Shown one piece after another: positions 3,089-58,959 of a stretch of 64,000 nucleotides of DNA (the stretch's first letter is position 1; each line of letters opens with the position of its first letter). Made by a program: the position numbers and the translations under genes. Source of the stretch: Psammoneis japonica (taxonomy: Eukaryota). Below the pieces are notes generated by a model, which was given only the letters and a program-made list of their open reading frames with translations, did no database searches and was not told where the DNA came from. The stretch covers positions 124,001 through 188,000 of the forward strand of contig QPGO01000047.1 in assembly GCA_008632985.1 (NCBI GenBank). Direction: 5' to 3'.

Positions 3089-4282
3089 ATGGCACTTACT
3101 TACGCAACGGACGCTCACTACATTGGATTGACTGTGTGTCTCAGTGTATCAGCAGTCCTTTCTTTGACTGGTGATGCATGCATTATTTACAGGATTGTGA
3201 AAGGGAAGAAGATCGATAAACTATACCATCGCTTGATGTTGGCAATCTCGATTTCAGACATCGTGTTCACACTGGCCGCGTTGCTGAGTCCATACATGAT
3301 GCCGTCAGTGACAGGCATTGTTACCGCTAGGGGAAACACTGCGTCATGCTCGGCATTTGCGGCGTTTATTATTGCTGGAGTTCTTGCCGTTAGCTCCTAC
3401 TGCAGTCAGCTCAGTTGCTACTATCGTCTCATGATCAGACATGGATACAGTGAGGAGACGTTGGCACGGCGCTTTGAAAAACCCGCTCATTTGGTGACAT
3501 TTCTCATCATCATTGTCTTTGTATCTGTCTGTCTGGCTTTGGAAGGGTTTAACCCAAATAAGCTGAGAAACGCGTGCTTTATTGAGTACCTGCCGCAGGA
3601 CTGCTTTGATAACGACAGTGTTGAATGCACTCGTGGCTTGTACGCAATTGAGCTGGCCCATTGTTTAGCTGCACTTGTCCTGGCATATTTGCTTGTTGCA
3701 CTTGTCAATACCTTTCTTGTATATTGGACGGTAAGGCAGTTTACAAGGAAGTGCGACCGACGTGCTTCAAGGAGGAATTCCCATGTTGGTGATCAAATGT
3801 TCCGTCGCGAGAGACGTGTCGCCGTTCAAGCATGCCTATATATGCTAGCTTACTTGAATACCTTCTTGTGGGTTGCGAGCACTGCTTTTGTTTATTCTCT
3901 TGTGGTCCCTTCGGGAGAAAAGCCGGGAAATGGAATCTATGCTTACCATTGCCTCTGGGTTTTCTTTGTGCTGCTTCAAGGCTTCCTCAACTTCTTTGTC
4001 TATATTCGACCCCGCTATCTTCAATGGAATGAGAACCATTCAGAGAAGTCTTGGCTTTGGGCTTTGCGAAAAGCAGTGTTTGACGTGAACCCACCTCCAA
4101 CCGCCATTTCTAGCCGCCGAACTAGTTCTCCTCCGTTGCACACCAGTCGAGCTTCGTCGTCATCTGGAATGAAGCGCGGCACTTCTTCATTCAAGAAGGG
4201 ACAAAGTATACCTCCTTCATTCAAGAGGGAACAAAGTGTGACAACAAATGTGTCTGTTGAGAAGGAACAAGAGGAATGTTGA
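3089..4282 (+). CDS. GPCR-like 7TM protein (cAMP-receptor/Git3-like)
   Basis: 397-aa intronless ORF with seven hydrophobic segments and motifs YHRLMLAISISD, GNTASC, C..DSVECTRG, LQGFLNFFVYIRP typical of diatom GPCR-like proteins. Confidence 0.85.
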   Translation: MALTYATDAHYIGLTVCLSVSAVLSLTGDACIIYRIVKGKKIDKLYHRLMLAISISDIVFTLAALLSPYMMPSVTGIVTARGNTASCSAFAAFIIAGVLAVSSYCSQLSCYYRLMIRHGYSEETLARRFEKPAHLVTFLIIIVFVSVCLALEGFNPNKLRNACFIEYLPQDCFDNDSVECTRGLYAIELAHCLAALVLAYLLVALVNTFLVYWTVRQFTRKCDRRASRRNSHVGDQMFRRERRVAVQACLYMLAYLNTFLWVASTAFVYSLVVPSGEKPGNGIYAYHCLWVFFVLLQGFLNFFVYIRPRYLQWNENHSEKSWLWALRKAVFDVNPPPTAISSRRTSSPPLHTSRASSSSGMKRGTSSFKKGQSIPPSFKREQSVTTNVSVEKEQEEC

Positions 4283-6269
4283 GGTCCAGTACATCCATCT
4301 ATAAATTGGCATGACGGACAGCTTGTTAGACTCCATGCTCATAGCAGGTACTTATTTTCACGTCATCTGTTTCAATTTCTGCGATTGAGTGAAACAAAGA
4401 CGCACAGATGAGCGATGGAGTGAAGCAAGACTGATCGATTCGTGCAAGGGAAACAAAGGCGTACGAAAAAGCAATGGAGTGAAAGCAAAAATGAGCGACA
4501 ATGTCAATTTTGCGCCAAGCGTTCTGACGCAATCGAGTGAAGCAAGAATGATCGATTCGGGTATCGACTGGCCTAACGATATCATTATTACTGGCTTCTA
4601 TAGACTTGTTGGTTGAGCACAAGTGATAACAATCTGAAACTTCTGGTGAGGCTCCGTCTCATTAAAGTGACGGGACCTACAATTGCGAGTGGAAAACAAT
4701 GTTGTTCAAGTTCTTTGACGAAATAAAGAAAATGGCTAGCACGGACTTGAGTAACCCCATCGGGATTACTACGCTCGCCTGTGCTGTTTGGTCGAGGCAC
4801 GGCGATACATGTGACTAAATTGGAAATCGTCGCTCCTGGCCGAAATGAGAAAAGATGAATATACGCAAGGGCTGAAGCCAAGAAGGAAAGCGAGAGACTG
4901 CGACGCAAGTGGTCGACCAGGTGCTTTCACAATGTGGTGGAAGATTTCTGACCTAGAGTGCATCCAGGGGCGCGGACGGCGTCTTTGCTTATGAAAATGT
5001 CGGATTTCGAAAGGCGTTATACAAGTAGCGTTCTCATGTGCTTCGCGATAAAAGAAAGCTGCTCCAAGTTGTGGCATGTCGAAACTGGCAGGTACGTTTC
5101 AATTCCGGATGTCATTTGTTGTCACGAGAATATACCGAGACGATTCTAGAACAAATTATTCCAGTCTTGTAGCGAGCTGCTATCCCGTTGATATTGCTCA
5201 CTCAAACTGTGCCACTGACGAAACGCGTCTCTTCCCCTCGGAACAGGGAGAACACAGGCAAATCATGGTTGCACCGGTGCAGAGTGCTTTCTTGGACTAG
5301 ATGTCAGAAGACGTGTGCTGCCGTTTGTTAACAGAAGACCTACATGATGCCTCTCCAGTCGAGGAGGAGCTACTACTGCAGCTGCAGTCTTTGTACTCGA
5401 ATCTCGAATCCCTTCGTTTTGCGGCCTGCAACGCCCTTCAACGCAGCTTGGAGAGCAAGAGAAGGAACGGCAAATGTTGCCTGAAGCTGAAAAGATTGCA
5501 GTGCTGTTGGATTTGTTTGGCACGACGATCATATTGGCATCGCACAAAGAAGCAGAAATAGACCAACAACACGACAAGGCTTCAATTTCGACGAGACATG
5601 CGAATCCCGAGGCCAAAGATGCGCGCTAGTAGCTGCAAAATCAAAATGCTGCCATGAAGAGTATTCCCATGCGATGCTAGAAGCTTTTCTTCGTTATGGA
5701 GATTGTGACGCCAAGGTAAATCTTATGTGCAACTTGATTGTGGATTCATTCTACTTCTTCTCAATGTCCTGTTCGCACACAGATTGGTTTTTCCATGGTG
5801 TGCCTCAGACCGGTTTGTGCACTGTTGGGAGTGCCGCCAAAGGGTGTTTGGTAGAGAAAAATGTCTCCTACCCATGACGATTGATGGTGCCTTGCGAGAC
5901 GACATGGTTGCTCTTGAAACTGGTCTTGCCTACGTTCTTCCTTACAGCGAAGTTGCTGGACGACACAATCTCGGGAGGCATCATGTCTCAAACAAGCGTG
6001 GGGCACACAAATGAAAGCTTGGTTATTATGTGTCATCCTGTCGATAGTTTGTCCATACAGCCACGATAAAAGCAGTGCCGGGCCTTGAATCGGCGTCACC
6101 ATTCGTTTGGGACTCGTGTCGGAGGAAAAGTTCTCGCAGCACCAGCCACAGCAGGTCTACGGCAACACAATCCACAATGTCAAGATGAGTTTTTGCACGC
6201 TCAAAACAAAAACATAATATGAATTATAGACCCAATGCATTGGCTGATTTGTCTTTTTTTAGTTTATAG

Positions 6270-6930
6270 ATGGTGGGCTTCCGAAACGGCATCGGCTTGC
6301 ACATTCCTGATGCGAGCCTGAAATGTCGATTTCTCTTCCGATGGCGTTGAAGCAACAGAACCAATTTCCGAAGCGGCTTCCGTCTTATCTGAACACGTTC
6401 ACATGTGACTTGAGGGCCTGAATTTTTTCTCTTCCACTCATCCAGACAAACAGTCTCAACTGCATTCCATGAGAGTGGGCTTCTGAATCGGCATCGGCTT
6501 GCACGTTTCTGATGCGAGTTTCTCTTCCGCTGGTGTTGAAGCAACATAACCGGCTTCTCCAAAGTGGCTTCCATTTCATCTGAACACGTTCACATGTCAC
6601 TTGCGGGCCTGAATTCTGTCTCTTCCACCTGTTCAGACAAACAGTCTCAACTGCATTCCACGAGAGTGGGCTTCTGAACTGGCACCTGCTTGCACGTTTC
6701 TGATGCCAGCCTTGATTTCTCTTTTGCCAGTGTCAAACAACAAAACCAACTTCTGAAGCAACTCATTCCACCTCAGGCCTGAAATTGATCTCTTTCTCTT
6801 CCGTCCATCTTGAGAAACAGTCTTGACCACATTCCATGAGAGTGGGCTTCTGAAAAGCATCGGCTCAAATGTTCTCTTCCGCTGGTGTTGAAGCAACACA
6901 ACCAACACTTCCAAAGTGGCTTCCAACTCA
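6270..6930. repeat. Degenerate tandem repeat, about 180-200 bp unit, about 4 copies
   Basis: Motif gtgggcttc(c/t)gaa..ggca.c.gct recurs near 6273, 6475, 6666 and 6842. Confidence 0.8.
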
Positions 6931-7599
6931 TTGTCTCTTTGACCCATCTTGAAAAACAGTCTCTTGACTTCTTCCAAACAACTGGCACAAAACTGCAATG
7001 CTGTCAATGTGCAAGAAAGCAAAAGTGCAATGAGTGGATGAACAAATGCCACATGGAAAGAGAAAAAGCAACAACACCATCATTTCAACAACACACACTC
7101 ACCCTGCATTGCTTTGTTGCTGGCAAGTTGGCTGGCCAATTGCACCAAAAACACCCAAACAATGACAAATTGAGGATTGGCTCCTGTCATCATCACCAGA
7201 ACCACCAGCACATTAAGTCTTCTGAGTTGCTTTGTGCAAAAAAGACACTGTGTGAGATGATGCAAGCATGGGTGATGGACAAAATCATTTGGTCCAAAGG
7301 TGTGAGCTGTTTAGACTCTGCTCCACAGTGGAGCATGCACAAAACCTTTTTTTTTAACCCACCTTTGTTCACAGACCATTCCACCACCAAGAAGACAAAA
7401 TGTCACCATGTTGTGGACACAATGAGGAGAGTTAAATCTTCCAATGCCACAGATTGCCAGATGTTGCTGTGAATTGGCTGCGCCCAACACCAGAAGATTT
7501 GATTGTTTGTTGTCCAAATGATGTCAAGCCAAAGAGACAACACACTGGCCCCACCAACAATGATGATGCAATGCCAAACCAACATGAACAAGCACAAAC

Positions 7600-8090
7600 A
7601 GAAAGAAACAGAATGAGTGTGTGCATTTTTGTGTTTTTTTACACAGCAATTGCAATGACACACTCACACCTTTTTTGCAATGCTGCTGCTCTTTGTTCTT
7701 TCAGAATCCAAAGAGAAAATGACCCATTGCCATCCAGAAGAGCTGTGGTGTCCTTTGGGAGCAGTTGAAAAAAGCAAGAAAAGAAACAGAATGAGTGCGC
7801 ATTCACACATTTTGCACAGCAATTCCAACAACACACTTTCCCTTTTTCACCCCACCAATGATGCTGCTCTTTGTTCTTCCAAAGCTTCAAAGAGAAAAAA
7901 AAGCATCACCGTCTGCACAAGCTGTTGTGTCCTTTTGTGGCAAAGGCAGAAAAGAAACAGAATGAATGATCATTCATGTGTTTCACACATCAACTCTGAT
8001 GACATGCTCATGCCTTTTTTCCCAAGAACACTGCTGCTCTTCATTCTTCCAAAGTTTCAAAGAGAAACAAAGCCATCAACTTGGAGACCC
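7600..8090. repeat. Degenerate tandem repeat, about 175 bp unit, 3 copies
   Basis: aaagaaacagaatga...tgctgctct...caaagagaaa starts near 7602, 7780 and 7951. Confidence 0.8.
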
Positions 8091-9884
8091 CAAACTGCAA
8101 ATGATGCTGCAGCTGATGGAGTGAGCTGCAAGAACCTGCTGGAGCATCTCCATGTCTCCCATGAATGACGCCATTCCATGTCAAGTGAGTGACTTCTGTT
8201 TTCGAGTTGAGCTCATAAAACCATTCCATTTTCATCAGTCATCCAACTGCGCACTTTGTTGGATCAACAGAGACAGCATCATCAATCACCAATGCTGCAA
8301 CATCACAAGCAGAGATGATCTGCAAAACAATGTGGATGCCAGCAAGAGATGTGGACACAGAAACATGCAACAGCCTCAAAGTGACACTTGCCGAGTGAAT
8401 CATGTTCTCTCACAATTGCTCTGCACATGTTGCTTGCACCTTGTGCCACTTTTGGTTCATTGCCACTTTTGGCTTGCTCAAAAAAATGAATGAGTGATGC
8501 AGTGATGAGCAATGAGCAAGATTTGGATTGTCAGCTTTGCTTGGCGCCTGTGGTGCTGCACACGCAGAAACCATGACCCTGTGACAACAAAGGAGCAACA
8601 AGTGTCTTCATCACCACAGGTGGCGCAAATCCAATCAAAGTTCAGGTTGGGTTTCCTTGGTGAGAGGATCTCAAATCCAGCCCCAAATGGATTTGCACCA
8701 CCTTCGGTCTCATGAAGTTAAATGCGTGAACACCCATCTCCAAGAGTGTCACATTTGGTGCAACCAACTGGCCAACCCGCCCACTGAGCACAGTCTGTTG
8801 AGCTCATGGTCAAGAGAGAAGCACAAGCAATGCTTGCTTGTGCTTGACATGTTCAAGTCAACAGCCAAATTATGAGCGAACCGAAGGCAGCACTGATTTG
8901 AGCATCGGCAGATTGCCTCTCAGTGCCTGAAAGGTTTTTTGGGTGTGCAGTTGTGAAGAGCCTGCAAAGAATGGAAGGGAACAGCAGAAGGAGGCACAGC
9001 AGCAGCTGCAGTGATGGTGGAATAGAATGGAGTAAATGCAGTGGATGTGCGGTGTTTGGTTCAAGGGACAGGGAACGTAGGAGCAGGAAAAGTTGAGGCG
9101 AATCGAAGGGCATGCACAGAAAGATGGAGGAGGACTGCATTGCAGCTGAGAGCCTGAAGAGCCCATTGGGATGGAGAGGCAGTGTGGAAGGTGCTGCCAA
9201 AGTGGTCAGAGGACAGGCAACACCATGCAGAATCAGCCAATGGAAGGAGAGCAGACAGAGAGGACAAGGCGTGGAGAAAGGCGGAGTGGGAAGGGTCAGA
9301 GTGCCGAAAGTCAGAGGGAGAGGACCAAGGGGGCTTGGGTTGAGACCGGACGGATGTGAATGTAGAGCCAAAGAGGAGGCAATGAGCAAAGAAGCCAAGA
9401 CCACCGAGGTGATCAACGGTGAAAGGGAGAAGGAAGACGCCGTCATTGTTGAGCGAAGAAACAACAAGGGAGCCATCAGCAGAGGAGGGGAAGGGCCAAG
9501 AAACTTCCCGAACACAGATTTATGTTTATATTTAGTTTTTCAATTTTATTTATTCAATGCATTCATGATAACGGATTCTTGCTATCAGGAAATACAATTA
9601 GCAACGGAAACAAAAATGAATAGAGTAGTCAACACTGTAGGTTATTGTCTTCCGTTTGGAAATTTCGAATTCTGACAGCTGACATAGTGGTCGAGATTTT
9701 CAGCGTTACGGCGTGCATTATTTGGCCATGACCCATGACCATGTGCAGCGCACAGCTCAAGCAACAAGCAAACGGGGCTTTCGGCTTTTCGTGCACGGCA
9801 TACTGTTACTTTCTCTGAGTCATCCCCCCTGAGACGCGCCAGTACTGTATACAGTACGTACATACTTGACGGTCCATCACAAGA

Positions 9885-10961: not shown

Positions 10962-11999
10962 ATGGATGGAATGAATACGATAACCAAAAACACAAGCAGG
11001 AAAATACCGGAGGGACAAACAGAAACGCAGATACGGCTGCAAGGTGGCCACAAGCAAGAAAAGGACAAGGTAAAGACTGCTCCGGGCTTCTAGGCGAGCA
11101 AGTTGTCGTTAGATTGAAAATGGCGAAAAGTAATGATGGTAAGATGGCACTCGCCAAGGATGCATCGATTGGAATTGTTTTTGTTTGAAACGAAAAAAAT
11201 GATACAATAAAGCTACCATCACCCCGTGTTCCAAGCTCCTATCTAGAATGGACTCTCGACTAAAAAAAGGATGAGTTCAACTCTCAAAAACAACAAGGAA
11301 ACGAACAGGCCCAAACGCTAAGTCTCCATTTTTTCGAACCAGGTTCGCCAATAGCAGCGACTGCAGGATTCTCGTTGCTCGAAAATTGAAGTGGAGAAAA
11401 AGGACAGAGGTGGCCCAAGAATTCTGCCATTGGGCTTTATCGATCCATTCTGCTGTTGCTGTGATAGAGTGGTACTACACGAGTACGTGGATCACACAGT
11501 CAGCATCCTATGGAAAGCATGAAATACCGTCAAATCCAATCCAACGCTCTGCCTAGATTACGTGCAGATTGTTTTCGCGGCCTGTAAGGGTGGGTCGATT
11601 GGTATTCCAGAATTGTCTTTGCTATGAAGAGTCCTTTGCTGGGGTCTCAATCTTATGTTTTGGTTCTTTTGATAGTTCGCGACACGTGTACTCAATGTAT
11701 TCAAGTCGGTAGGCGCTTCAATACGACGCGGGAAAGCGGAGGTGACGGCGGCACTTGCAGGATGGCTGTGGTTTGCGGTTCAACGAACAACGGCATTCGA
11801 TTGTTGTGCTCTGAAGAGTACACGACGCGATGCTTTGCCGGTGAACTTTATTGATTCCCCATCATGAATGAAAGGACGCTTCCTAGTAAAATTGGAGCAA
11901 CGCAGTGTCCGTGATGGGGGACCTCCATCCATTCTCGCCTTTTGTTATTGTGTGGAGTGGCATTTCAATCCCATACCTTCTTTTTGTATTTCAGGTGCA

Positions 12000-18581: not shown

Positions 18582-19344
18582 AGCGTGGCGTTTTGCAGGG
18601 ATCGATAAGTAACCCTTTCATAATTATTGAACTTTGGATCGTTTTCTCTTGATGCCGAGGTAACGTAGATCGAGATTGCCACCGGCATTGTTTTTCATTT
18701 GTCGCACATACTCAACAGAAGATGTTGCAACCGAAAGCCAAGGTGTGTATCACATAATATGCTCTTATTGCGTTGTGCTTGTAGACCGATACCGCTCAAT
18801 ATTCCAGTTGGTGTACTGTACCACTTCAGAACAACACTTCTGCGTTTGCCAAAAAGCCGGTGGATATCCCAAAGTATTCATGCTCACCCATGAGTGTCCA
18901 ACCATTATTCTTTTTATTTACAGAAGTACCCGCCCATGCCCTGAGATGTCTCCGGTGTCGCCCTTCCAGAGAGTCGGATCGGCTGACTATCGTTTTTTAA
19001 GGCCAGCGACATGATAATTCCACTGTCATGCTAGGATCCAACGAAAATACAAGCGACGCTCTACTCTTGAGGTAAATTTTGTCATCGTCAAGGAGCGAAT
19101 ATGGTAACTGTCGTAGTATCCTTTTAAAATTTGATAACAGGATATTACAGGGTGCGATCAAGAATTCTCATCATAATCAGGCCACGGGTACGGCTAGTCG
19201 TATCGATGTCAGCATACCTACCCCGAGAAACATGGTAAGAATGAACAACGGTCTCCTCTTGTCCCATTCTGTCCATACCGGTTACCGTATTCCAACAAGT
19301 TTTCTGAGCCTTCGTACCGGAATTGCTGTGATCTGAATGGCATC

Positions 19345-19760
19345 CGCTCTTGCAGCAAGGACCAATGACAGATATTAATCAGATGCTATCCTAACAGTTG
19401 CAAGTCTACCTACATTTACCTAAGAACTGCCACTGAGTATTCATAATACGATGGCCCTTATTCCTTGCTTTCTCCTCTCTTGACGACTTCTGGATTGTTC
19501 GTAAAGAACCACAAAATGAAGTTCCCAACCTGTCCTATTCTGTCCGCAACGGAAGTGCTGTGATCTCAATGGTACCAGCTCTAGCAGTAGTGATCAACAA
19601 TAGACAATAATCAGATAACTAACCTAAATCTTGTACATCTACCTACCTATATCTAAGAAAGGCCACCGGCTACTCATAATCCGTTGATCCTTATTTCTTG
19701 TTTTCTCCTTTCTTGACGAAGTCCGGATTGTTCGTCAAGAACCAAAAAATAAAGTTGTCA
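19345..19760. repeat. About 235-bp tandem duplication of the 3' end and 3' flank of the LRR gene
   Basis: 19458-19523 (minus) encodes NFILWFFTNNPEVVKRGESKE*, versus NFIFWFLTNNPDFVKKGENKK* at 19691-19756. Flanks also align. Confidence 0.75.
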
Positions 19761-20921
19761 TCGCTGCGCGGACCTGCCAAGACATGTGGCCAAAGAGCTG
19801 CAGACACGTTGTCGCGACGCAGCAAGTGTCTTCCTGCACTATTCATGTGAACGTAGCAATCCATTTCATCTTGCGTCTCCTCGTCAACCGTCGGCATCCA
19901 CACCTGGTCAGCAGAATACGCAGCTTCTCCAATGTCCTTGGGTGTGGTTGTAAGCGACAAGCAGCCGTCCAGCTGGAGATAACGAAGCCTCGGCAGCTGA
20001 AGAATTTCCTTTGGAATAGACGTCAAGTGTTCACACCCAACCAGACCCAAGACACTCAACTTTGTGAGCAATCCCATCTTTGGAGGAAGCTCGAATAATT
20101 CGGAGCAATTTATAAGCTTTAACCACGTCAGATTGACAAGATTGCAAACGACGACTTGCAAGAATTCATTCAAGCCGGGGCCGTAGTTTTCAAGCATAAG
20201 ACATTGAAGCTGTGACAGCTTCCCAACTTCAATCTCGGGAGTTTCGTGAGTTTCTTGCAATCCACAAGATAGAGTTCTTCAAGTTGCTGTAACTGTCCTA
20301 TTTCAGGGGACAACTTCGTGAGAGACCGGCCAACGTGTAACCGCAGCTCCACCAAGTTTGTCAACTGCCACAATTGATCTGGCAACTCTTTGAGACTTTC
20401 GCAGTGGCGAAGGTCAAGGAGACGCAGTTGCTGCAGCTGCCCGATTCCCTTTGGCAACTCTGCAAGACTTTTGCAATGGCAAAGGTGAAGTTCTCTCAGT
20501 TGCTGCAGTTTCCTGATTTCCATTGGCAACTCTTCCCGATTCCCGCAGGCAAACTTCTGAGAGCACTGCAATTGCACAAGTTCAGCTTCTTCAAGCTTGT
20601 CAATTCGCACACTTCATTGGGCAAGACAACGATGCTCCGGCACTCAGTTAATTGCAATTCTTCAAGTCGCTGCAGCTGCTCAATTTCTCGAGGGATCCGC
20701 ACAAGATTGATGGAACTCACGGCCAAGACTTCAAGTCGACACAACAAGCCAATTTCGCACGGAAGCACAACCAAACTGGGGACAGAGCACAAATGCATTT
20801 CTCTTGCATTGATGCACTTCTCGTGCTCCAGTGAAAAAGTGTGCAACAACCGCCACTTTGGCAGTCCCGCAGCTTGTTTCATGGCAGCGAGGATCAGGTC
20901 GGAAGGGTCGTCATCGTCCAT
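19691..20921 (-). pseudogene. Leucine-rich repeat protein, frameshifted, 5' half TpA-converted
   Basis: LRR units (LPxEIGxLxxLxxLxL..C) spread over three frames, with shifts near 20535 and 20240. Diatom-type C-terminus N.AGR.LL...LWP.VL. Confidence 0.85.
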
Positions 20922-21029
20922 TGTTGTTGCTCTTGTTCCCTTGCAACCGGGCTGTGAGAGCAACGCACTGGCTCAAAGTGAGCGTGTTGACAAAAAAAAC
21001 TGTTGGTGATTTCAAATGCCATTGACGAC

Positions 21030-21435
21030 CGTGCGCCGGGCCATGACTCGTTGTGTGTGTCAAGAAAGCATTGCGCGATGCTTTTCTTGTGTTTCTTTTT
21101 GAAAAACGAGCCAGCTTGCACTGCCAGCACTTGTGCTCAAAAGACAATGTTTCGTTGTGCGGTGCAAGTGAAACCGGGCGTGCTAACTCCCAAGGGGCTG
21201 TCGTCTCTCGTCTCCACGTGTGCATTTAGAGGGCCTGCCGCAGTTGTTCTCTGCGACCTGCGCCGGGCCATGTCTCGTTGTGTGTGCAAAGAAAGCGTTG
21301 CGCAGTGCTTTTCTTGTTTTTCTTTTGAAAAGAGATCTTGCCAACACCAGCACTTACGACTGTTCAAAAGCCAATGTTTCGTTGTGCCGCACAAGTAAAA
21401 CCGGACGTGCCAACTCCAAACGGACCATCGTCTCT
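21030..21435. repeat. Direct repeat, about 228 bp unit, 2 copies, upstream of the LRR pseudogene
   Basis: tgcgccgggccatg.ctcgttgtgtgtg...aagt.aaaccgg.cgtgc.aactcc starts near 21032 and 21259. Confidence 0.85.
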
Positions 21436-21742
21436 GTGTTGACAGGGCTGTGATGCAATGTCATAGAGCAAAAAATGAAAACGCACGAACCAAAGCGCCA
21501 TCAAAGAACGTGAAGTGGCTTATGTAGTTTCTGACCACGACATTTCACGTTAATGACCCTCGTCTGGCCGCCACCGAAAACATCAAAAACAATTCTGATT
21601 TTGTCATTTTCATTTGACGAAATCTACAGGAAACGCTGGTAGAATTTCTACGTAGAATTTATCTTATGTAGCGCGACGCAATAGCGCGATAGTCGCACGA
21701 AGTCATCACACGCGCAGTCATCGGCAGATCTTGATCGGCACC

Positions 21743-24278
21743 ATGGCGTCTTCTCTTTTGCGAACGAGCGTTCGACGTTGTGTGACGACGGGTCGTATCA
21801 CACCACGGCGTAATGATTTTATCAATAAGAGAGTGTTTTCAAGTAGTAGTGTGGCTGCTGCAGTGTCAACATCGTCTGAGCAACACTATGAGGATTCGTC
21901 TCGCGCGTCATTGCCGTGGATGGGAGCAGCAGCGGCGGCGGCACTGGCAACTGCATTGAATACTGACAACAACAACAAGGCAGAATGCTGCGGAATTGCA
22001 GGTGTTGTTGGGGGAGATAAGGACGATGCCAGGTAAGATACTTATGGCCGAACGAATTCGCCGGACGCTGTGTTCCCGGTGTACTTGATTAATTTGATCA
22101 TAGACGTGCAGAGGAAGCGCAGGGATTACCATAAGTGAGGCGTTGATCATACTTACATCATCAAACTTGCTCTTGTTCTATTTTAGACAATTTCTTTTGG
22201 AAGGACTGACTATTCTCAAGAATCGCGGCTACGATAGCGCCGGACTAGCTACGGTCCCGGTAGAGGGCGGAGCCATGGTATTGACAAAGTACGCCAGTGA
22301 CGGAGACAAGGCTGATAGCATTGAATTAGTAAAGTCCAAAAGCGAAGCTTCTTCGGGCCATCCTATTGGTATTGCTCATACGCGTTGGGCCACTCACGGA
22401 GGAAAAACAGATGAAAACGCGCATCCTCATACGGATTCTTCTGGCAAGATTGCTCTGGTCCATAACGGTACTCTGAACAACGCAAATGAGTTACGGAAAG
22501 AACTCCAAGACCTGGGCCACGTTTTTACGAGTCAAACGGATACCGAAGTCATTGTCAAACTCATTGGTCATATCCGAGATAAGGACCCCAGCAATATCTC
22601 TGTCAAGGATGCTACTCAGCTCGCCTTGGATCGCTGTGACGGTACGTGGGGCCTCTGCATCATGTGCTCTGACACACCCGACGAACTTGTGGTGGCGTGC
22701 AATGGATCACCCATGGTGTTGGGGATTGCCCACAATCGTACCTTTGTTGCGAGTGAAACGTCGGCCTTCAATCGGTACACCAAGAACTTTATCAGCATGA
22801 AGGATGGAGAGATTGGTGTTTTGCACGCTGACGGACGAACTTTGGATTTGACGCGCAAGCAGAAAGCGCCTGATCACAAAGTCGAATTGTCGCCAGATCC
22901 ATTTCCTCATTGGACGCTAAAGGAGTAAGTTGTAATGGTTGTATGTGTCGCTACTGTAAGTTAAAGGCAACGGGCTTACCCTTTTGGATCACCTTGTTCT
23001 CGCTCAGAATGACTGAGCAACCTGAAGCCATGGCTCGAGCCCTGGGATTTGGCGGTCGGTTGGCTCCTGACAAGGTCTTGTTGGGTGGACTGGATAGTAA
23101 CTTTGACCGCATGTCTAAGATCCGTCTCTTGACTCTGAGCGCCTGTGGAACGAGTCTCAACGCAGCCAAGTACGGGGAACGACTCATGAAGCATTTGGGA
23201 TCCGTTGACAGTATCGTGTCCATTGACGCTGCAGAAACTGGCCCTGATGATTTTCCTGTCTGCAAGGAAACGTCAGAAAGTGGTGTCATTGTTATTTCGC
23301 AAAGTGGGGAGACCAAGGATGTCCAACGTGTCGTGTTGACTGCCATGGACAAGGGTGTGACAGTGATGAGTGTGGTCAATGCCGTGGGTAGTCTCATTGC
23401 GCGCACCACAAAGCTGGGAGTTTACTGCAACGCCGGACGGGAAAATGCGGTTGCATCGACAAAAGCATTTACGACTCAAGTTACTGTACTAGCACTTATT
23501 GCATTGTGGTTTCGCGAAGCCCGTGACAAGCTCGAGGGCTTGGCGCCCTCTCAAGAAGCGGTTCGTCTCAAGGAGGCACTCATGCGGCTGCCCATTACTT
23601 TTGGAATGACCATGAAATCGCGTGACAAATGCCGTGAAATTGCCAAACGACTGGAAAACAAGGAACATTGTTTCTTATTGGGCAAGGGGTATGGCGAACC
23701 GGTGGCACAAGAAGGAGCGCTGAAAATCAAGGAAATGTGCTACCTTCACGCAGAGGGGTACAGCGGAGGCGCACTCAAGCACGGGCCCTTTGCCCTGATT
23801 GAGAACGATGAGACGGGAAAGAATGGTGCGACCCCAATCATTATGCTCGTTCTCGACGATGAGCATGCCCAGCACATGCGTACTTGTGCGGAGGAGGTAA
23901 GTTTTTGGCAAGAGAGTAACAATCATGGGATTGCCGGGCCTGCACTCATGATGCTGGCGTTTATTTATCGTGTAGGTCAAGGCTCGGGGTGCTGAGATTA
24001 TAATTATTACGGACAAGGCTAGCCTTGCACAGGGTTTGGACGACGATCCTATTCTCATTCCGTCCAACGGTCCAATGACTGCTCTTGGTGCCGTGCTACC
24101 GTTGCAACTGATTGCTTACGAACTTGCTATGCTACGGTGAGTTTAAGTTGTGCTGCCCTTTCATATTTTGAAGCAAATCGGCTCTTCCTCTCATCAAGCG
24201 TGTTTATGAATTTGTTAATGTAGTGGCATCAATCCGGATACTCCACGAAACTTGGCCAAAGCAGTTACTGTAGACTAG
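21743..24278 (+). CDS. glmS: Glutamine--fructose-6-phosphate transaminase (GFAT) with N-terminal presequence, 5 exons
   Basis: Motifs [53 protein letters not shown] and C-terminal [11 protein letters not shown]. Introns 22033-22186, 22925-23007, 23897-23975, 24137-24223. Confidence 0.95.
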
Positions 24279-32232: not shown

Positions 32233-32954
32233 GGTGATGGTGGAGATCGTTTCGTGACAAGTGACAAGTGAAAGCGTTGACACTTTATTGTGGAAGCCTA
32301 CCATACACGCATACTGTACAACGAACCTTCGTACGTATCCTGATCGTGGCTTCAAGTTGAAGAACAATGAATGACGTAATCGACTGCAATGGTACTGTAC
32401 GACGTGTGCGTTCTGTAACTATTCTCTAATGAGAGCTTTTATAACTGCAAGAAACACCATTTTTGTCACAAATAATAAATGATAAAAAGGTCTAGTAACG
32501 GCAAATTGTGTCTTCTAACTTGTGTTGCGAAAACCGGTCAACAGGGAGACGTCATTGGTGGACATCATGGCATGATGGATGGAAGTCTTCTTTCGCCGCT
32601 TCCTTTTCGGCTCCTCACTTCCCACCGCTCGCTCTCAACCCGCGCCTCCCTGGCAGTCTCCCGCTGCTCTCCACAACTCTGATGCCTCCTGCTCTGCCTT
32701 TCTTCATGCCCCCTCCTCCCCTGCGCTGACTTCACCTGCTGCTGCGGAGCCCACCTTGGCACCACCGATCGCTTTGGCAGCACACATCGCTCTGCATGCC
32801 AAGCTGCAAGCAGCACCCAGTGCCACCTCTCTTCTTGTGCCACTTGGTTCCTTCCCCTGCCCTGTCCACACACCAAATGCCCTGCTGCTCGTCGCTGTGC
32901 CCCCCTCTGTCACCCCCCCGCAGCCACCACCGCCGCTCTGAGACAGCTGCCTTG

Positions 32955-33200
32955 ACACCATTTTGCACCCTTGGCAACATTGTGCCCTTGGCCACCTTGT
33001 GCTTTCTGTTGTTTTGAACCCACAGCCACCATTTTGCACCCTTCTTAATTTTGCGACCTTTCGCATTTTGCACATTTTGAGATTTTTTGCCCTCGGTTTG
33101 TGCCCTTGGCAGTTTTGCGCCCTTTGAAATTTTTGCCCTTGGCCATTTTGGGCTCTTTGTCATTTTGTGCCATGAGCCACAATTTTGCCCCCTCTGAGTT
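32955..33200. repeat. Cluster of short ttttgc(a)ccctt(ggc) motifs
   Basis: About 8 variants of tgcccttggc / ttttgcaccc in about 250 bp. Confidence 0.65.
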
Positions 33201-33840
33201 GGCATGCTGAGTTGCACCCCAAAGTTGGCATGCCAAGTTTTCCCCCAAAGTTCGAGTTTGCCAAGGTTCGACACACCTGTGGCAAGTCGCCCACGTGTTT
33301 GCCTCCCAAGCCAGCAAATTTTGGTGGTTAAATTTGGGTTTGTGTTTTGCTTCTTTGGAAAATGTCTCATTTTCATTGAGATGAGTCGGCTTGACAACTT
33401 GTGCCATTTTGTGGGGCTGAATGAGTTGTGAAGGTGTCTGCCCACATGTCAGTCATGTGTTGTGATTGAAATCATGGGGAGTCACTTTTGGGTGTTCTTT
33501 GGCGACCATGATTGTGTTTTAGAACTTTGACTCCAAGGCTTTCAACCAATCTGACCTCAAATCCATCACTGCAGACTCCTCAAGCAAACTGTGGAGTGAC
33601 AGGATTTGAACAAAATTTCAGTTCATCACACATGATCATGTGTGCTCGCAGCTCCGCACGCAGCACATGATGCACTTTGCTTTCAAGCCACTTGGCTCAC
33701 AAGAACGACAACAACAGCTCTGACATCATGACACCAGTCTTTTGACTCCTGTGGTGGTCTCTGCATGGAGACTCATCTGCTGTTTAGACAGCAGTGAGGA
33801 GTCATTGTTTTCTTCCACCCAATCATCTTCAATTTCTGTC

Positions 33841-33930
33841 ACTTGCCAAACTCGCCAAACTTGCCAAACTCACCAAACTTGCCAAACTCATCAAACTTGA
33901 CAAACTTGGATGCCTTGCCAAACTCGAAAA
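33841..33930. repeat. 9-bp minisatellite (AAACTYRCC), about 8 copies
   Basis: acttgccaaactcgccaaacttgccaaactcaccaaacttgccaaactcatcaaacttgacaaactt. Confidence 0.9.
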
Positions 33931-33999
33931 ACTCACACCGCTGCAACAACAATCCTGGGCCAAAGCAGAAAAGTCAAGGGGGGGTCATCCCCACATTCA

Positions 34000-35230
34000 T
34001 CCCAAAATGGTGTTTGTTTCCGAATGCAAAAAATTGTTTGCATTCACACCAGATCATGCAAAAAATGAGAACCACCAGGCACTGCAGTCAAAGCATGACA
34101 ATGATGCAATCATCAATCTTTCTTGAAAACACAGCGGGGCAACCACAAACTTTTGATCCACGTGTGATCTTTGACACAAAAAAGGAGCACAGCTGGAAGA
34201 TTTGGTGTGTCAGATGTGACGCTGATGATGCCCCCAGTGTCAGAAGGTTTCTCCAGCTCGTTGACCTCTGCTTCACAATGGGCACCCTTTTCAGCTTCAC
34301 TGTCATCATGAGAGCCCCTCTTCGTCATCCAAAACTTTCTTCTGTGCCTCTTCTGGCTGGGTCTCCCACACCACAAAGCCATCAACAGAAGCTTTTTGCT
34401 TCAGAGATGCTGGGGTTTCTTCTTCTGTCTTGTTCATTGTTGCTGGCTTCATCCTTTGCTGCATCTTCAGCACCACCTGTTGCTGCTTCTGGCTCTTTTG
34501 CAGGCACTTGGTTTTCTTTGTGATTTTGCAACGGATTTTTGGTGCTGTGTTCTGGGGTTGGGGGGAAGCTGTTGTTTGGAGCATCATCCTGTTCTGCATC
34601 TTCAACACTGCCTTTCACTGCTTCTGGCTCTTTTGCAGGCACTTGGTTTTTTTGTGATTTTGCAGTGGAACTTCCGGGAATCATTGTTTGGAGCATCATC
34701 CTGCGCTGCATCTTTGACACCACCTTTTGCTGCTTCTCTGGCTCTTTTGCAGGCACTTGGTTTTCTTTGTGATTTTGCAATGGATCTTTTGGAATCTTGG
34801 CACTGTCTTCTGGGTTTGGGTGGGAGTTGTTGTCTTGGGCATGTTCAGAGTTAAAATGTGCAGCACTGACTGTGCCATGTGGGTCCATTGCTGGGTCCAT
34901 TGTGGCTGACTCTTCTTTGTCTGTGACGTGTTCAGATTGGATGTGAGAAGTGCAGACTGTGCAATTTGGGACCATCGCTTGCTCCATTTTGCCCGACTCA
35001 CCTGACCAAATGGCACTGCTTTCCATTTTGTCCTCCTGGGCAGGTTCTTCAATTTGTGGACCTTCCTGCTGGTGCCCAGCCAACAACTGATTTTTGTCAT
35101 TGTGCTCAGCGTCTGCTCTGTCTTGAGACTCACCCTTGCACTGGCACTTCTCAAACCCACCTTTGTTGACCTCTCTGCACTCACATGGCTTGTGATTGAG
35201 GAAACTTCCAGCAGATGAGTGTTGCCTCAA
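34000..35230 (-). pseudogene. Relic low-complexity acidic protein with 3 internal KENQVPAKEPE repeats
   Basis: ORF 34382-35230 repeats K(E)NQVPAKEPE. DNA motif ctggctcttttgcaggcacttggtttt occurs near 34489, 34624 and 34738. No Tyr. Confidence 0.55.
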
Positions 35231-36666
35231 TCATTCTTGCACACTCTTCCACTGATTTTTCATCCTTGTGGCATTCGTGGAAGTGGTTGCAGTCGCTGCA
35301 ACTTTTGTCATCATCAAACACACAAATTGGCGCCTGCCCCCCCCCCCCACACAATGCAGATCAACCAGAAATGCAGATCAACCAGATTGGATGGTGCTGG
35401 AAACTTGTTTTTGGCAGGGCCAGCATCTGAACTCTCAAGCTTGTCACTGGTGCTGTCATGCCTTGGAACCTGTCAGGCTGGACCCTCTCCTCTCTAACAC
35501 CATGCCTCTCATTTCCATGGCACTTGTTTTCCAGATGCTTTGTTTCTCAGAAAGAGCATCAAGGCTGCAGTGCAGAGGTGCACAACAGGGGGCAGACTTT
35601 GTGACCCTGTGTTTGGGGCAGCTCCCAATTTGCCTGCATCTTGCCGTGTCATTTTGGAGCAGGTGGAGATTGTGTCAGCCGGCCCCTGCACCAAATTCCT
35701 GATTTTTGTTCCTGTGTGTTTTGTCATCCAGCCCACAAGTGGCTGAAGCTGGCAACTCAAGCAGAGGTGCCAAGTTTGCCCCCTCTTGCTTGCGTGCATT
35801 TGTTTCATCCTAAACATGCACCAGGCAGGTGCCCCAACCTCCATGCTGTGGAGCCAAGCTGGTGCTGCGTGGTTGTTCGTGCCTCCCAACAGACAACTGG
35901 CTGGCACCCTTTGGTTTTTCTGCAACTCAGCTTTGACTGTTGAGAGGAGTGCTGCTGCCCCTGCTGTTTTTGCTTCCTTCTGTGTGTCCTCCAGCTGCTG
36001 CCTGGCCAAGTTTTTTGACATCCCTGTGGCACAACCTGCAGACTGAAGCACCGCCCACCCCGACTCGGAGAGTGCTGCATTTTGCGCGCACTTTTGAGTT
36101 TGTGAGAGGGCATCAGCCAATGCAAGCATGTCTCAGCCTGTGTTTGAGTTTGTGCTGGCACACCTTGTGCTGCATTTTCCTTCCAAAATTTCAGCATGTT
36201 TTGGCGTTTGAACAAACGCCGCCTGTGTGTGATGGTCAACACGGTGCACCACAATGCTGCTGGCACACTGCTGAAAAAGTTGCTCTGGTTGTTCTTGCTG
36301 GACCCTTGCAAGTGCAGCACGATGCCAGGCACAAAATAATGACAGATGCTGCGTGACACGAAAACAAAGAGAAGCCAGCTTTGCACAAAAAAGTCACACA
36401 CAACAAAATTGATGTGTGTCGTGAAAGCATGATGTGGCAACAAGTGATCTAAATATCCGGGTTTCTTCCCGATAGATTTATGAGAACCCCATTCGGCATG
36501 GCTGATGTGTGAGTTCGCGCGAAGAAAAGTTTAGCATACTTTCTCACAAAGTCCGTTTATTATCATGCTCATTATGAATATCTTTATAAAACGGGTTCGG
36601 ATTCACATTTTGAGAGCTCTGTCAGCAAAAATCCACATCAAAAGTGGGAGACAATGAACTTCACCC

Positions 36667-53254: not shown

Positions 53255-53791
53255 TTGTGGGGTGCGTCAAACAGGTCTCACGGAAAGCAAGCCCTTAGCC
53301 ACAATTCTGACAGGAAGTGGAGTGCATGTCCAGAAAAAGACATTGAAGCCTGCAATGGCGATAAGGCTGATTGCATGGCCACTGCAGATGACGCATCAAG
53401 CCAATTCAAGTGCATGATTCAGCCCACCAACTCAAGTCATTGTCGCTGCATCCAAGAAGAACGAAGCTGGACCGAAAAGATTCACATCTGTGAATGCGAG
53501 GCAAATGAGTGGCATCAGCTTGGTCATGACCTCAACAGAGAAGTTCAACCTCACCCATTCATTGAATTGTCTTGTTCCATTTTGAGTGACAGAACTCACG
53601 TGACCTTTGCCGCTGGGAACAATGGCGCACACGTCTCAAAGCTTGGGGCTGGTTGTGCATTGCCATGGGCCAATGACTGTGCAGCTCTTACAAAAAATGT
53701 GCAAGCTTGCATTTTCTGTTGCGTGTGGGTCACAGAAGCCATCACATCTGTCATGGAATTACCCACCCCAAGAGAGCTTCAGCTCATTTGA
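53255..53791 (+). pseudogene. Tyr-free relic ORF, beta-propeller/FG-GAP-like after back-conversion
   Basis: IHICECEANEWHQLGHDL reads IYIYEYEANEWYQLGYDL if TG/CA are reverted to TA. Confidence 0.45.
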
Positions 53792-54174
53792 TGCTGCTGG
53801 TTTCGCTTTTTTTTCATGTCATTTCACTCAAAACCAGATCCCTTGATCTTGTTCAATTTGCACATCTGTGAAAGAACAAGGTGGAAGAAAACAGTTCAGA
53901 TGTTGCATGTTGCACTTTGAGGATGCAGTCAATTGTTAAGGCAAGTGTGGGCATGTGTGAAGAGCAAGAGTGGGTCACTGCACAGCAGGCTGCCCACTTG
54001 AGGCATGTCAAGTTTTGTGCGACCGAGGTGTCATTTTTGCCAGTGGTGTGAAATGAAACCTCAGCAAACTCTCATTGCAGCTGTTGAAAGGATGGATGGT
54101 CAGCACATTGTTCGACAAACCTGAACCCAGCTTGCTTTGAGCATTGCTGCTCACGAAGTGTCGCGTCCATTTTC

Positions 54175-55243
54175 ATGATGACATGTGCACATTGGTGTGC
54201 ACTGCTGCCAATGGTTGCAAAGGTCATGTTTGATGCGATGGCGCAAGGTGTGTCAATTGCTGCAAAAGCAAGTCAAGACATGCTTTGCGCTGCTTTGGCT
54301 GCACCACGATTTTTGCGCCGATCGAAAGCCACGATGACTCCTTTGTCCACCTCCAGAACATCCTGCGCAACACCATGCCTGCAAGCATGCCTTTTGACCA
54401 CAAGGACTGTGACTCCACCCTTCTTCACAACGCCATTCAAAACTGCACACCTGCAGAGGACATGCCAGTTGATGCTCTGTCTGCCAGTCCTCCTTTGACT
54501 TGTCCATCGAGCATGAAATCGATTTGTCCGACCATTTTCAAAACATCCTTCGAGAGCATGCGCCCGCCGCAATGATTGCCATCCTGACGTTTTCCGACAC
54601 TTGCGAGATTTTGTCAAATTTCACTGGTGAGACCATGTCAAAGCTGCGCACTGCATTCCACGAGTTCTCTTTGAAGACCAAGACTGTTCGTGAAACCGCT
54701 TCGACCTTGCACGAGATCATCCATGACTCCTTGAAGACCTTCATCACGAAGGCACGAATTCAGGCTCACGTTTGGAAAGAATGTATGACGATGTCGTTTC
54801 AGACACCAATGTTGTCATTAGAATGTTGGTGGACAACAATTCAAGAAGCAACTGACAGCTCTGTCACACTTGTTCAAACTCAGGCCCGCACTCTGTGTGA
54901 CAAATGCGAGACGATGCCGTTTTGGACACCAAAATTGTTTTGCATCCAGAACATTGGTGGACGAGAGTTCAAAACTCGTGAAGGAGCTTTTAATCTGGGT
55001 GCGAGTGCGGGTGAGCAAGATGTCAAGAGTTGGGGACGTTCCTTGTGCCCCGATCCGAATCATGCGGTGAATTGGGCCAGTTGTTTGACGTGTGCGGCAA
55101 GAGGGGCATGGTGTGTTGTAGAGCGGGATCAGCTGTTGTGCAGTTTACATTCGGAACCTTGGCGCAAGACGATTCTGTTGAGAGTTTTCTGTTCATTGCA
55201 TTGGATGGTGGGATCTAGCTGTGCCATTGCAGAGCGCACATGA
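54175..55243 (+). pseudogene. Tyr-free relic gene, frameshifted, unknown product
   Basis: Overlapping ORFs 54285-54575 and 54500-55243 read as protein-like text with C/H at Tyr-like positions. Confidence 0.5.
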
Positions 55244-55520
55244 CAAGAGCAAGTGTCCAAATAGTCTCCCTGCTTTCATTTCGTCCGCTTCGTCAAAAAT
55301 GCCAAAGGAAATGCTGCCTCCATCGCTTGAAGAGCCTCTCCAACCGGTGGAAGCGAGATTTAAGTGCAGCTGTGCCAGTGCAGAGCACATGCAACAAGAA
55401 CAAGTGTCCAAATAGTCTCCCTGCTTTCATTTTGTCCGCTTCGTCAAAAAAGCCAAAGGAAATGCTGCCTCCATCGCTCAAAGAGCCTCTCCAACCGGTG
55501 GAAGCGAGATTTAAGTGCAG
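55220..55520. repeat. Near-identical 150-bp tandem duplication
   Basis: caagtgtccaaatagtctccctgctttcattt...gcgagatttaagtgcagc occurs twice, 150 bp apart. Confidence 0.92.
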
Positions 55521-56447
55521 CCAATGAAACGCAGCTTCACCGGCATTGCGAATCACCGCATCAGGTTTTTCCTTTGGAACGCTCGGCACGCGACCAATTG
55601 TTTTGAGAGAATTGGCAATCTGGTGCTGCTCGCAGACACTTTCCAAGCAGTGGTGCATTTCGGAAACAGCATCGTCAAACAAGATCACTGGCAAGGAGGT
55701 GCAAGCATCCTCCAGTGGTGTGGATCGTGCGCCCGCACACACAATGTGAATTCGAAACTCCGTGCAAGGCCTTTGAACCATCAATCTTGAAGGCACCAAA
55801 ACTTTAAGGTCTGACAATGTTGTGGAAGAAGGGGAAGTGAGAAGTGAAAATCGAGAACGGATGGTCACGGTGCGAGCTTGCGATGAATGAATTTGTTGTT
55901 CCTCACCTTGCTGTCAACAACAAGCTGCGGCAGACGGGATTCATTCAAGGCGGGCAGCATTGGAGAAAGCTTCACGCCTTTCTATGCGGCGATCACTGAC
56001 ACTGCCATTTCTAGCGTCGGCTCTTGTCCTTCCAACACAGCTGCCCCGACTCGGTGCTTGACTTGCTTGTCATCAAAGGTTCCCTCAAAGTTTGACAACG
56101 TGCGCGAAATTTCGGAGACTGTCAACCGTGTGCCATTTCTCCTCGTCGTCGCAGGAGAGAAGACTCAACTTCTTGGTGCTGTCGCACTTGGCTGCCGTTG
56201 CAGGAAACCATGACTGCAGCACATGGATTGAGACCTGTGCTTGTCGTCATCAACTGGCCCGATTGCTTCCATGTTACTGCCGGCCGACAACGAGAAGGAC
56301 TCTTCAACTTCATCCGAAAAGTCAGTCAAACGAGTCTTTTGAAGCACAAAAGGGAATGAGAGACAATTGGAGTGTGCCCTTTCTGCCCCATTCCTGGCTT
56401 GTGCCTCGTGCCGCACCCCGTCTGTTGTCACGAGATTGTCTCGAGAT

Positions 56448-56537
56448 CGTGTCCCGCGCATCACCGTCCCACGTCCCGCGTCTCACCGTCCCACGTCCCA
56501 CGTCCCGCATCCCGGCGCGTCCCGTGTCCCACGTCCA
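56448..56537. repeat. GTCCCRC short-motif array
   Basis: About 8 copies of (c)gtcccac / gtcccgc upstream of ORF 56689. Confidence 0.8.
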
Positions 56538-56688
56538 AAAGAAATTTGTAAATTCCAAAAGCCTGGGTCGTGCCAGCGTGTGTGCTTGTCTGTGTCACCA
56601 AAATGCAAGCACGACATTGCACGGCACAGCAACGGACGACAAAAACCGACAAAACCTGTTCGCAGCTTTGACCTGCTGCTGAATCACC

Positions 56689-58017: not shown

Positions 58018-58959
58018 GGCAGATCCAAATTCGTCTAAAACAGAAAGATGAAAAACTGCGAACTGGCGGCTGTGCCCTCCAACTCAATTCCAGCAACCAC
58101 CCAACTGGCTCGTCAATCAAATGGTCACTCTGGGTGACTGAGTCGTCACCGACAAATGCACAGACAAAGGCAAAGAGTCGACAGGCAAGGTGCCAGCGAG
58201 GAATGAACTGCGAATCAATCTCGCTTGCAGGTTTGAAGCGACTCCATCTGCAAAGAAGCTCAGTCAAGAATGAAATTTTCCTGACAAGGCCTTCAACCAA
58301 CAGCGCAGGAATTGACACATTCAGACGGGCAACTGCAGATCGTTCTGAGCGTTGAACCAGTCGCTGCACTCATTGCATCTGCGAATCACTGGTGCCAGCA
58401 AGGGCCAGAGCAGCAAGCTTCCCATCAGCAAAACGCTTGCCTGCATCCTGCGTGCAACTGCAAGTGCGCTTCAATTGCAATGAGCAGCAAGAGAAGCTTC
58501 AGCAAACAGAGTGCGAGAACAATGCATTGAAAATGAGAAGGAGACACTTGACGAATGAAACAAAACAGGCGACTCACCTCGACACGTGCTCATTCCCCCA
58601 ATGACGTCTCGAACTTCTGGCCCAAGCGTCACTGCCATTCTTTTCTTCATTCCATCCATGTTACATTGAATCGCTTGTTGCTTTGCCGTAAGCGATTGGA
58701 AGTCTACAAAGGCGGTGCTCGAAAGCAAGTCACCGGATGCTGAACCTGTGAGATGCTCCCAACCCAGCTTTCTTGCTAAAGTGGGCTGCTTCTTTTTCGG
58801 GATCTTTCGCCGTTGATCTTGTGTCAAACGAACGCATTCAGCATCAATGCCAGGTATGTTGATTCAACTCTTGAGTCATGCTGCGCAAGGACAAGAGAGA
58901 AAGCAGGAATTTTTGGTGCCAAGTCTCATCGGCGACAGGGCAATGTTCAAAGAAGTCAC

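Follow-up and report, generated by a model that had tools for sequence, protein, structure and literature searches.

TpA-poor blocks in the window

The 64-kb stretch of DNA described here (the window) comes from a compact eukaryotic genome, with 48% GC and long frames with few introns, and all counts and tests given below rest on it. It contains four blocks in which the dinucleotide TpA (TA) has nearly disappeared and in which the few remaining TA have a characteristic set of flanking bases. The blocks sit between long frames and Pfam-supported genes, save for the 5' half of a leucine-rich repeat (LRR) gene that lies in the second of them. The observation is real, and TpA-targeted A:T-to-G:C hypermutation, with rates that depend on the tetranucleotide, is its most likely and a probable cause.

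Over the whole window TA has an observed/expected ratio (O/E) of 0.47 and a median spacing of 16 bases, and gaps of 500 to 1067 bases occur at four places. A two-state hidden Markov model (HMM) on whether each T is followed by A calls four blocks of 1.0 to 5.3 kb, ~13 kb in total and 20% of the window. The first three are those of a preliminary description of this DNA, whose borders were thus not cherry-picked. In the words used below, V is any base but T, B is any base but A, R is a purine, and Y is a pyrimidine.

Block 1, 6271-9018: TA O/E 0.05, CG 0.28, CA 1.64, TG 1.90 (HMM and dinucleotide counts); 10 TA, no VTAB
Right edge of block 1, 9019-9520: partly depleted and purine-rich; 4 TA (atag, gtaa, gtag, gtag)
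LRR gene, 19691-20972, minus strand: three overlapping frames with matches to Pfam LRR_14 (E=7e-15 and 6.5e-9)
Block 2, 20348-21354: TA O/E 0.05, CG 0.76; a partial zone reaches 21463
Block 3, 32520-36448: TA O/E 0.03, CG 0.30; 8 TA, no VTAB
Block 4, 53368-58661, absent from the preliminary description: TA O/E 0.07, CG 0.77; 22 TA
Tail of block 4, 58662-60602: partly depleted; 37 TA (11 YTAR, 19 mixed, 7 RTAY)

Outside the blocks the TA O/E is 0.59. The longest gap without TA in block 3 spans 1067 bases (33785-34852). The loss of TA is accompanied by a rise in CA and TG (O/E 1.41 to 1.90 in blocks vs 1.19 outside), with other dinucleotides little changed and GC at 0.455 to 0.502 vs 0.477 outside; AA and TT are higher in the blocks than outside, not lower. 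GC-biased gene conversion or drift would give a general shift from AT to GC without dinucleotide specificity, and with GC unraised and AA and TT undepleted both are excluded. The preliminary description had already argued that composition cannot yield the specificity of the surviving TA, and this is supported.

CpG is also depleted in part of this DNA (O/E 0.04 to 0.54 in 500-base windows, at 6501-9000, 32501-36000, and 53501-54500). The loss falls on blocks 1 and 3 and on the left kilobase of block 4, with CpG retained in block 2 and over the remainder of block 4, and the CpG-poor blocks are those without VTAB survivors. This suggests that TA loss is fast and that CpG decay proceeds at a slower pace within these domains, which are probably methylated.

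Contexts of the surviving TA

A full listing of TA with their flanks returns, exactly and in the same order, the ten that had been given for block 1 (6275-9020): ttat (6386), ataa (6547), ttaa (7214), ttag (7312), ttaa (7355), ttaa (7433), ttac (7640), ataa (8216), ttaa (8719), and ttat (8871). The eight of block 3 (32517-36449) are ttaa, ttaa, ttag, ttag, ttaa, ctaa, ctaa, and ataa, and the five of 20341-21400 are ttaa, ctaa, ttag, ttac, and gtaa. None of these 23 sites is VTAB, as had been stated. Among 1,952 TA outside the blocks, VTAB makes up 61.1% and TTAA 3.2% (57.5% and 3.2% in the part free of open reading frames, ORFs). With the HMM borders, VTAB is found at 0 of 21 sites in the first three blocks (p=2.5e-9 against TA outside) and TTAA at 8 of 21 (p=1.6e-7).

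Block 4 lay outside the preliminary description and serves as a hold-out. Its 22 survivors are 6 TTAA, 5 TTAB, 2 VTAA, and 9 VTAB; the TTAA share again exceeds the 3.2% of the background (p=5e-5), and for the VTAB share p ranges from 0.04 to 0.09 with the choice of background. Three of the four TA at 9023-9520, in the ~500 bases to the right of the first block as originally drawn, are also VTAB. Of the proposed rule that surviving TA are TTA or TAA, the TTAA excess is thus reproduced and the absolute ban on VTAB is not, and the rule is a strong bias.

The 43 survivors of the four blocks divide into 14 TTAA, 12 TTAB, 8 VTAA, and 9 VTAB, and the same classes number 65, 383, 334, and 1,213 outside (n=1,995). 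Expressed as the ratio of block to background TA density, survival is 0.85, 0.12, 0.09, and 0.03, which is the order TTAA > TTAB = VTAA >> VTAB predicted beforehand. We fitted Poisson models to the two half-sites of each TA, a half-site being the base 3' of A on each strand, and compared them by the Akaike information criterion (AIC):

Uniform survival: AIC 103.7; rejected (deviance 75.8, 9 df)
A versus not-A, the model of the preliminary description: AIC 51.5; fails (goodness-of-fit p=0.006)
Four-base multiplicative: AIC 38.1; fits (deviance 4.1, 6 df, p=0.66)

With uniform survival rejected, the contexts of the survivors differ from those of the background within the window. In the four-base model half-site survival is 0.88 for A, 0.34 for G, 0.08 for C, and 0.09 for T, and the two-class model is rejected against it (likelihood ratio test p=1.6e-4). 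The protective effect that had been assigned to an adjoining A/T tract is therefore evident for A but is not restricted to A/T, with G also protecting relative to C and T. Likewise, a multiplicative half-site model describes the data, but not in its two-class version.

Grouped by purines and pyrimidines, survival is 0.34 for YTAR (TTAA, TTAG/CTAA, and CTAG), 0.055 for mixed sites, and 0.007 for RTAY (ATAT, GTAC, and ATAC/GTAT), of which a single site is left; the background shares of these classes are 30.5%, 53.9%, and 15.6%. CTAG is among the more resistant contexts, with 4 left vs 26.7 expected at background density. The partly depleted edges, which are independent of the fit, give the same order (0.69, 0.45, and 0.22), with p=0.026 for RTAY depletion and p=0.056 for the three-class chi-square.

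It could be supposed that the remaining TA are newcomers that arose by ordinary mutation after the hypermutation, or that they are kept by selection. Some TA must arise by mutation, and the VTAB of block 4 could be such. However, one-step TA precursors in the blocks would yield TTAA in 7.6% of cases by TG/CA transitions (200/2,626) or 5.0% by transversions (196/3,894) and VTAB in 52 to 55%, vs 14/43 and 9/43 observed, and no function is known to keep TTAA across four unrelated noncoding blocks. This origin is very unlikely.

Mutation in place

Tandem repeats occur inside every block, and the blocks do not resemble one another. Seven nonredundant pairs of tandem copies within blocks contain, over 1,363 aligned positions, 30 sites at which the same dinucleotide is CA in one copy and TG in the other (CA<->TG doubles), vs 1 in 1,067 positions for two repeat pairs outside (Fisher p=4e-7). 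These doubles account for 60 of the 238 differing bases in blocks and 2 of 146 outside (Fisher p=6e-12). Two repeats illustrate the pattern:

7602-8078, block 1: tandem repeat of ~175 bases, ~2.7 copies; 11 CA<->TG doubles in 291 aligned positions
55217-55521, block 4: tandem repeat of 151 bases, 2 copies, 93% alike; 3 CA<->TG doubles, making up 6 of 11 differing bases

Such a site implies an ancestral TA (or CG, in the CpG-poor blocks) that became TG in one of the copies and CA in its partner. The opposite outcomes place the change after the duplication, in this locus, and on both strands; an imported composition is therefore excluded, and selection or biased conversion is very unlikely.

The wider family of explanations in which the blocks are foreign TA-free DNA, or result from selection against TA, GC-biased conversion, or an artifact of assembly or base calling, draws on the sharp borders and on the lack of recognizable host genes in the blocks other than the LRR gene. 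That gene, however, is a host gene that crosses a block border, and to this are added the postduplication changes and the unshifted composition described above. Contigs of a sequencing run, X1, also give the same letters as the window over 5000-7014, 7677-8977, and 19774-22000, with 1, 2, and 6 differing letters, although these are reads of one sample, maybe the assembly's own, and so argue only weakly against an artifact. Explanations of this family are highly improbable.

Over block 2 and its edge (20348-21463, ~1 kb) the X1 contigs differ from the window at six places, four of which are TG or CA in the window and CG in X1; outside the blocks the differences listed come to about one per 1.5 to 2 kb. 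These differences in block 2 may reflect ongoing CpG decay or raised diversity.

There is no bias between TG and CA, and hence between strands, at the scale of blocks, with three or four 500-base windows deviating, and a runs test for strand-coordinated patches gives z from -2.1 to +1.8 in blocks, with the same range in the background. Interspersed TG and CA without runs fit many independent hits. In blocks 2 and 4 the loss of TA (~36 per kb) matches the gain of TG and CA (~39 per kb).

Proposed mechanism

In the process that we favor, TA would be changed to TG or CA in place, on both strands, within sharply bounded kilobase stretches lying mostly between genes, the affected stretches carrying tandem repeats and in part also CpG decay. 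The rate would be set by the tetranucleotide, such that RTAY is almost fully erased, YTAR resists, and TTAA is practically immune; with a context-dependent rate, the remaining TA would be a fingerprint of the sequence preference of the agent. Judging from the end state of the sequence, this agent is most likely a DNA adenine deaminase that requires a T on the 5' side of the A and disfavors a purine, above all A, on the 3' side. The deaminase would be directed to silent chromatin, and the process would be of the same kind as the TpA hypermutation of Bigelowiella natans.

Several points weigh against this interpretation. The survivors are few (43 in 13 kb), two of the block 4 TTAA (55361 and 55512) are copies of one tandem unit and so represent one event, and the survival ratios assume that the ancestral blocks matched the remainder of the window in their TA contexts. 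The balance of losses and gains in blocks 2 and 4 fails for individual contexts, with TGC/GCA gained in excess and TGT/ACA gained too little, and was not used to rank contexts; the class with C at both half-sites gains 56.7 vs the 23 expected TAC/GTA ancestors. The excess of TGC/GCA implies that the ancestry of the blocks was unlike the background or that secondary changes occurred, and part of it may come from conversion of TATA to TGCA. None of the nine X1 differences listed in or beside blocks 1 and 2 touches TA, and six are exchanges between CpG and TpG or CpA. No viral or transposon Pfam family is matched (E<=0.05) by any of the 117 frames of at least 70 codons from the blocks and the block 4 tail; LRR is the only family with real matches among them, although heavy mutation could hide the origin of the block DNA. 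A last point concerns the candidate enzyme family. ADAT2/ADAT3 is a natural eukaryotic TadA-type deaminase able to make A:T-to-G:C changes in DNA and is the candidate in B. natans, and amphioxus BjADAT2 edits DNA; its preferred contexts in E. coli are GAA for adenine and TCG for cytosine (PMC10354150), and it thus has no T at -1 and has, at +1, the A that is protective here. BjADAT2 is the only natural eukaryotic ADAT2 tested on DNA in the sources consulted, and its GAA and TCG contexts are not those seen in the blocks.

Possible strand-by-strand and site-level protection

The preliminary description proposed that each strand is attacked independently. The multiplicative fit and the product tetranucleotides favor this, and the flanks of tandem sites with opposite outcomes speak against it; because the tests disagree, protection strand by strand is not established. 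Both the product test and the tandem-site test use the background as a stand-in for the ancestor, and the latter is confounded in blocks 1 and 3 by sites derived from CpG.

In its strict form the proposal holds that the A of each strand is attacked alone and is shielded solely by an adjoining A/T tract, so that TTAA is doubly shielded and TTAB and VTAA are converted via the unshielded strand only. Survival is indeed multiplicative over half-sites, with TTAB and VTAA nearly equal (0.12 and 0.09), and where just one half-site is A, products of a hit on the other half are gained at 159.7 (standard deviation, ~28) and products of a hit on the A half at 89.6 (standard deviation, ~22), or 43.5 vs 19.0 in the CpG-normal blocks 2 and 4. 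G half-sites are similarly hit less than their C or T partners (24.6 vs 126.7, and -17.9 vs 38.5), and in blocks 2 and 4 the gain is ~206 for products whose new G is followed by a pyrimidine vs ~39 for those with a following purine (hand sums), as protection of separate strands would give. On the other side, the two-class model loses to four bases because G also protects, and the A-shielded strand, expected to take ~5% of hits (hand-computed from the fitted rates), accounts for about one-third of the net gain. Moreover, the TG copy is followed by A at 9 of the 30 CA<->TG sites (3 of 7 in the CpG-normal blocks), and among the 20 sites whose flanks are conserved, T at -1 or A at +1 is present at 12, vs ~10% expected (hand-computed). 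In the strict form we regard the proposal as rather doubtful.

Alternatively, the tetranucleotide could be read in the duplex, by a cue such as groove shape or stacking (YYRR against RYRY), with one rate per site and the strand then taken at random. The 25 classifiable CA<->TG sites (5 YY, 15 mixed, and 5 RR, by hand) are near the background TA classes, the lack of strand bias at block scale and of strand runs is in keeping with such recognition, and the multiplicative fit is equally expected from it. The preference for a pyrimidine 3' of the new G (~206 vs ~39 in blocks 2 and 4) is, however, far stronger than the ~57:43 expected from half-site densities, and recognition at the level of the site is likewise possible but somewhat unlikely.

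Relationship to known systems

In mutation-accumulation lines of B. natans, 231 of 302 nuclear mutations fell in two integrated viral regions, all but one of the 231 being A-to-G or T-to-C and the GC-biased ones all lying on TpA, and the mutation rate of these regions was ~1,000 times that of the rest of the genome (Mettrop et al., 10.64898/2026.01.13.699255). Genome-wide there are 124 TpA-poor and CpA+TpG-rich clusters, with 81% of their genes unannotated, and an ADAT2-type adenine deaminase is put forward as the agent; bases beyond the dinucleotide are not mentioned in the main text of the preprint (10.64898/2026.01.13.699255). Our literature search found no report of TpA-poor blocks in diatoms and found TpA hypermutation in DNA only in that preprint.

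The two systems share a change confined to TpA that gives TpG or CpA on either strand, which in the window is read from the end state, as well as kilobase domains, long-term TpA loss with CpA+TpG gain, and mostly unannotated genes. They differ in several respects. The host here is a diatom-like ochrophyte and there a chlorarachniophyte, and the TA O/E of 0.03 to 0.07 is near saturation, vs 0.45 in the B. natans nucleocytoplasmic large DNA virus region, with the reservation that our 500-base O/E may differ slightly from the preprint's Rho. B. natans targets integrated viral regions, whereas the blocks described here have no viral or transposon domain match, one of them covers half of a host LRR gene, and two and a half have lost CpG. 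The tetranucleotide rule seen here, with TTAA spared and RTAY erased, is not part of the preprint's main text. By the cluster cutoffs of the preprint, block 3 passes over 4 kb (TA 0.00 to 0.15, TG/CA 1.71 to 1.91) and block 1 over 2.5 kb only, and block 4 passes for TpA throughout and for CpA+TpG in 4 of 10 full windows.

Repeat-induced point mutation (RIP), known from Neurospora and other fungi, changes C to T at CpA, yielding TpA, enriching TA, and leaving a deficit of CpA/TpG. It resembles the process proposed here as a dinucleotide-specific transition hypermutation of both strands within bounded stretches, ruining coding sequence and with repeats among its targets, but it runs in the opposite direction, as TA is nearly absent in the blocks and CA/TG reach 1.9. 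With regard to the duplication that triggers RIP, eight of the nine tandem arrays of the window lie in blocks, yet a dispersed pair of repeats outside is unaffected:

2-862 and 3561-4424, outside the blocks: dispersed repeat pair, 864 bases, 88% alike

This pair is not TA-depleted, and its substitutions follow an ordinary spectrum from which CA<->TG doubles are absent; duplication alone thus does not seem to draw the process. In E. coli, very-short-patch repair, a genome-wide effect linked to CCWGG methylation, depletes CTAG. There, too, a sequence-specific process (on T:G mismatches) replaces a TA-containing word with CA/TG words, but CTAG, the word lost there, is among the more resistant ones here.

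RNA-level A-to-I hyperediting of double-stranded RNA, by an ADAR-like or fungal ADAT-like enzyme and with copying back into DNA, would likewise rest on adenine deamination with a required 5' U/T. It acts on RNA, however, and needs hairpins or double-stranded RNA, and no long inverted repeats were found in or around the blocks, where the best arms are of 22 to 28 nucleotides and 71 to 77% complementary. ADAR needs double-stranded RNA and favors a 3' G, and to our knowledge it does not occur outside animals; a G at +1 is partly protective here (survival, 0.34), the opposite of that preference, and with arms this short ADAR-type hyperediting does not fit. Moreover, hits are spread singly over the two strands, with no runs, and tandem copies have mutated independently in place. 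In favor of editing, U at -1 is known for A-to-I changes by ADAR (10.64898/2026.01.13.699255, Discussion) and in fungi (PMC11156358), although fungal sexual-stage editing is often at UAG and UAA, and TAA and TAG are protected here. We give an RNA-level origin very little credence.

The only account so far of DNA hypermutation specific to TpA is the 2026 chlorarachniophyte preprint, in which no enzyme was identified; saturated blocks in a diatom-like genome would add a second major lineage and would suggest that the process is aimed at silent DNA in general, beyond viral inserts. What appears new beyond the known TpA hypermutation is the tetranucleotide rule, which comes from the sequence of this window. 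As a testable specificity, it would require T at -1 and rank the bases at +1 as T ~ C, then G, with A far behind; it could be used to accept or reject candidate deaminases, and the sole natural ADAT2 tested on DNA among the sources consulted does not fit it. Tentatively, stramenopiles, like Rhizaria, might carry a RIP-like genome defense in which an adenine deaminase reads a four-base word and is aimed by chromatin and not by viral origin. If so, a chromatin-aimed defense would also wear down long silent inserts between genes, tandem repeats, and even a portion of a host LRR gene, CpG decay would lag behind in these domains, and the spectrum of surviving TA would help to identify the enzyme.

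Content of the blocks

Tandem arrays are concentrated in the blocks, which hold eight of the nine found (p=2e-5).

6330-6706, block 1: tandem array
19318-19756: the ninth array, 600 bases from block 2
20380-20535 and 21026-21435, block 2: tandem arrays
33097-33171, 33841-33933, and 34572-34788, block 3: tandem arrays
55217-55521 and 56451-56536, block 4: tandem arrays
56683-58017, plus strand, block 4: 444-codon open frame, no tyrosine; weak coiled-coil-type Pfam matches only

The LRR gene lies in block 2 with its 5' half and upstream region, the gene spanning the block border, and the portion within the block has no tyrosine codons. No homologue of the 444-codon frame was found among 8,000 candidates scored. 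Altogether the ~13 kb of blocks contain 102 open frames of at least 70 codons in all six phases, nearly all free of tyrosine because TA is missing, and the loss of TAA and TAG accounts for long frames in every phase; most of the long frames in blocks are surely spurious. Outside the blocks the longest ORF-free stretch is 1,478 bases and the next is below 800, and the blocks are mostly longer. For annotation, DNA that is free of TA and so lacks TAA and TAG stops gives long spurious frames in six phases, and gene finders would over-call it.

Host genes in the window

Pfam domains in the window include DEAD-box helicase, guanylate cyclase, CIA30, LRR, SIS, and tubulin-tyrosine-ligase. All named homologues of the DEAD-box helicase are from diatoms, with identity of at most 57% among the matches listed. 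A fragment of glucosamine-6-phosphate synthase has two named homologues, in a Thalassiosira (70%) and in Triparma laevis (66%), an alga of the sister group of diatoms, and its best match, without an organism name, is at 81%. From these matches the DNA is assigned to a diatom or a near relative of diatoms. A metagenome scan with the helicase alignment returned only generic DEAD-box loci at 31 to 38% identity and was not used, and tRNA and Rfam scans of the window gave no matches.

Contigs of a second run, X2, which is labeled "DNA?", lack 155, 67, and 86 bases with GT..AG ends at 5088-5244, 5713-5781, and 11588-11675. Joints of this kind make the run look like a transcriptome and reveal short introns in the flanking genes. 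X2 is without cover over 6701-9535 and 20309-21442, which was not used as evidence on expression. At 60307-62109 on the minus strand, an isochorismatase domain and a tubulin-tyrosine-ligase domain lie in one long frame, an unusual pairing.

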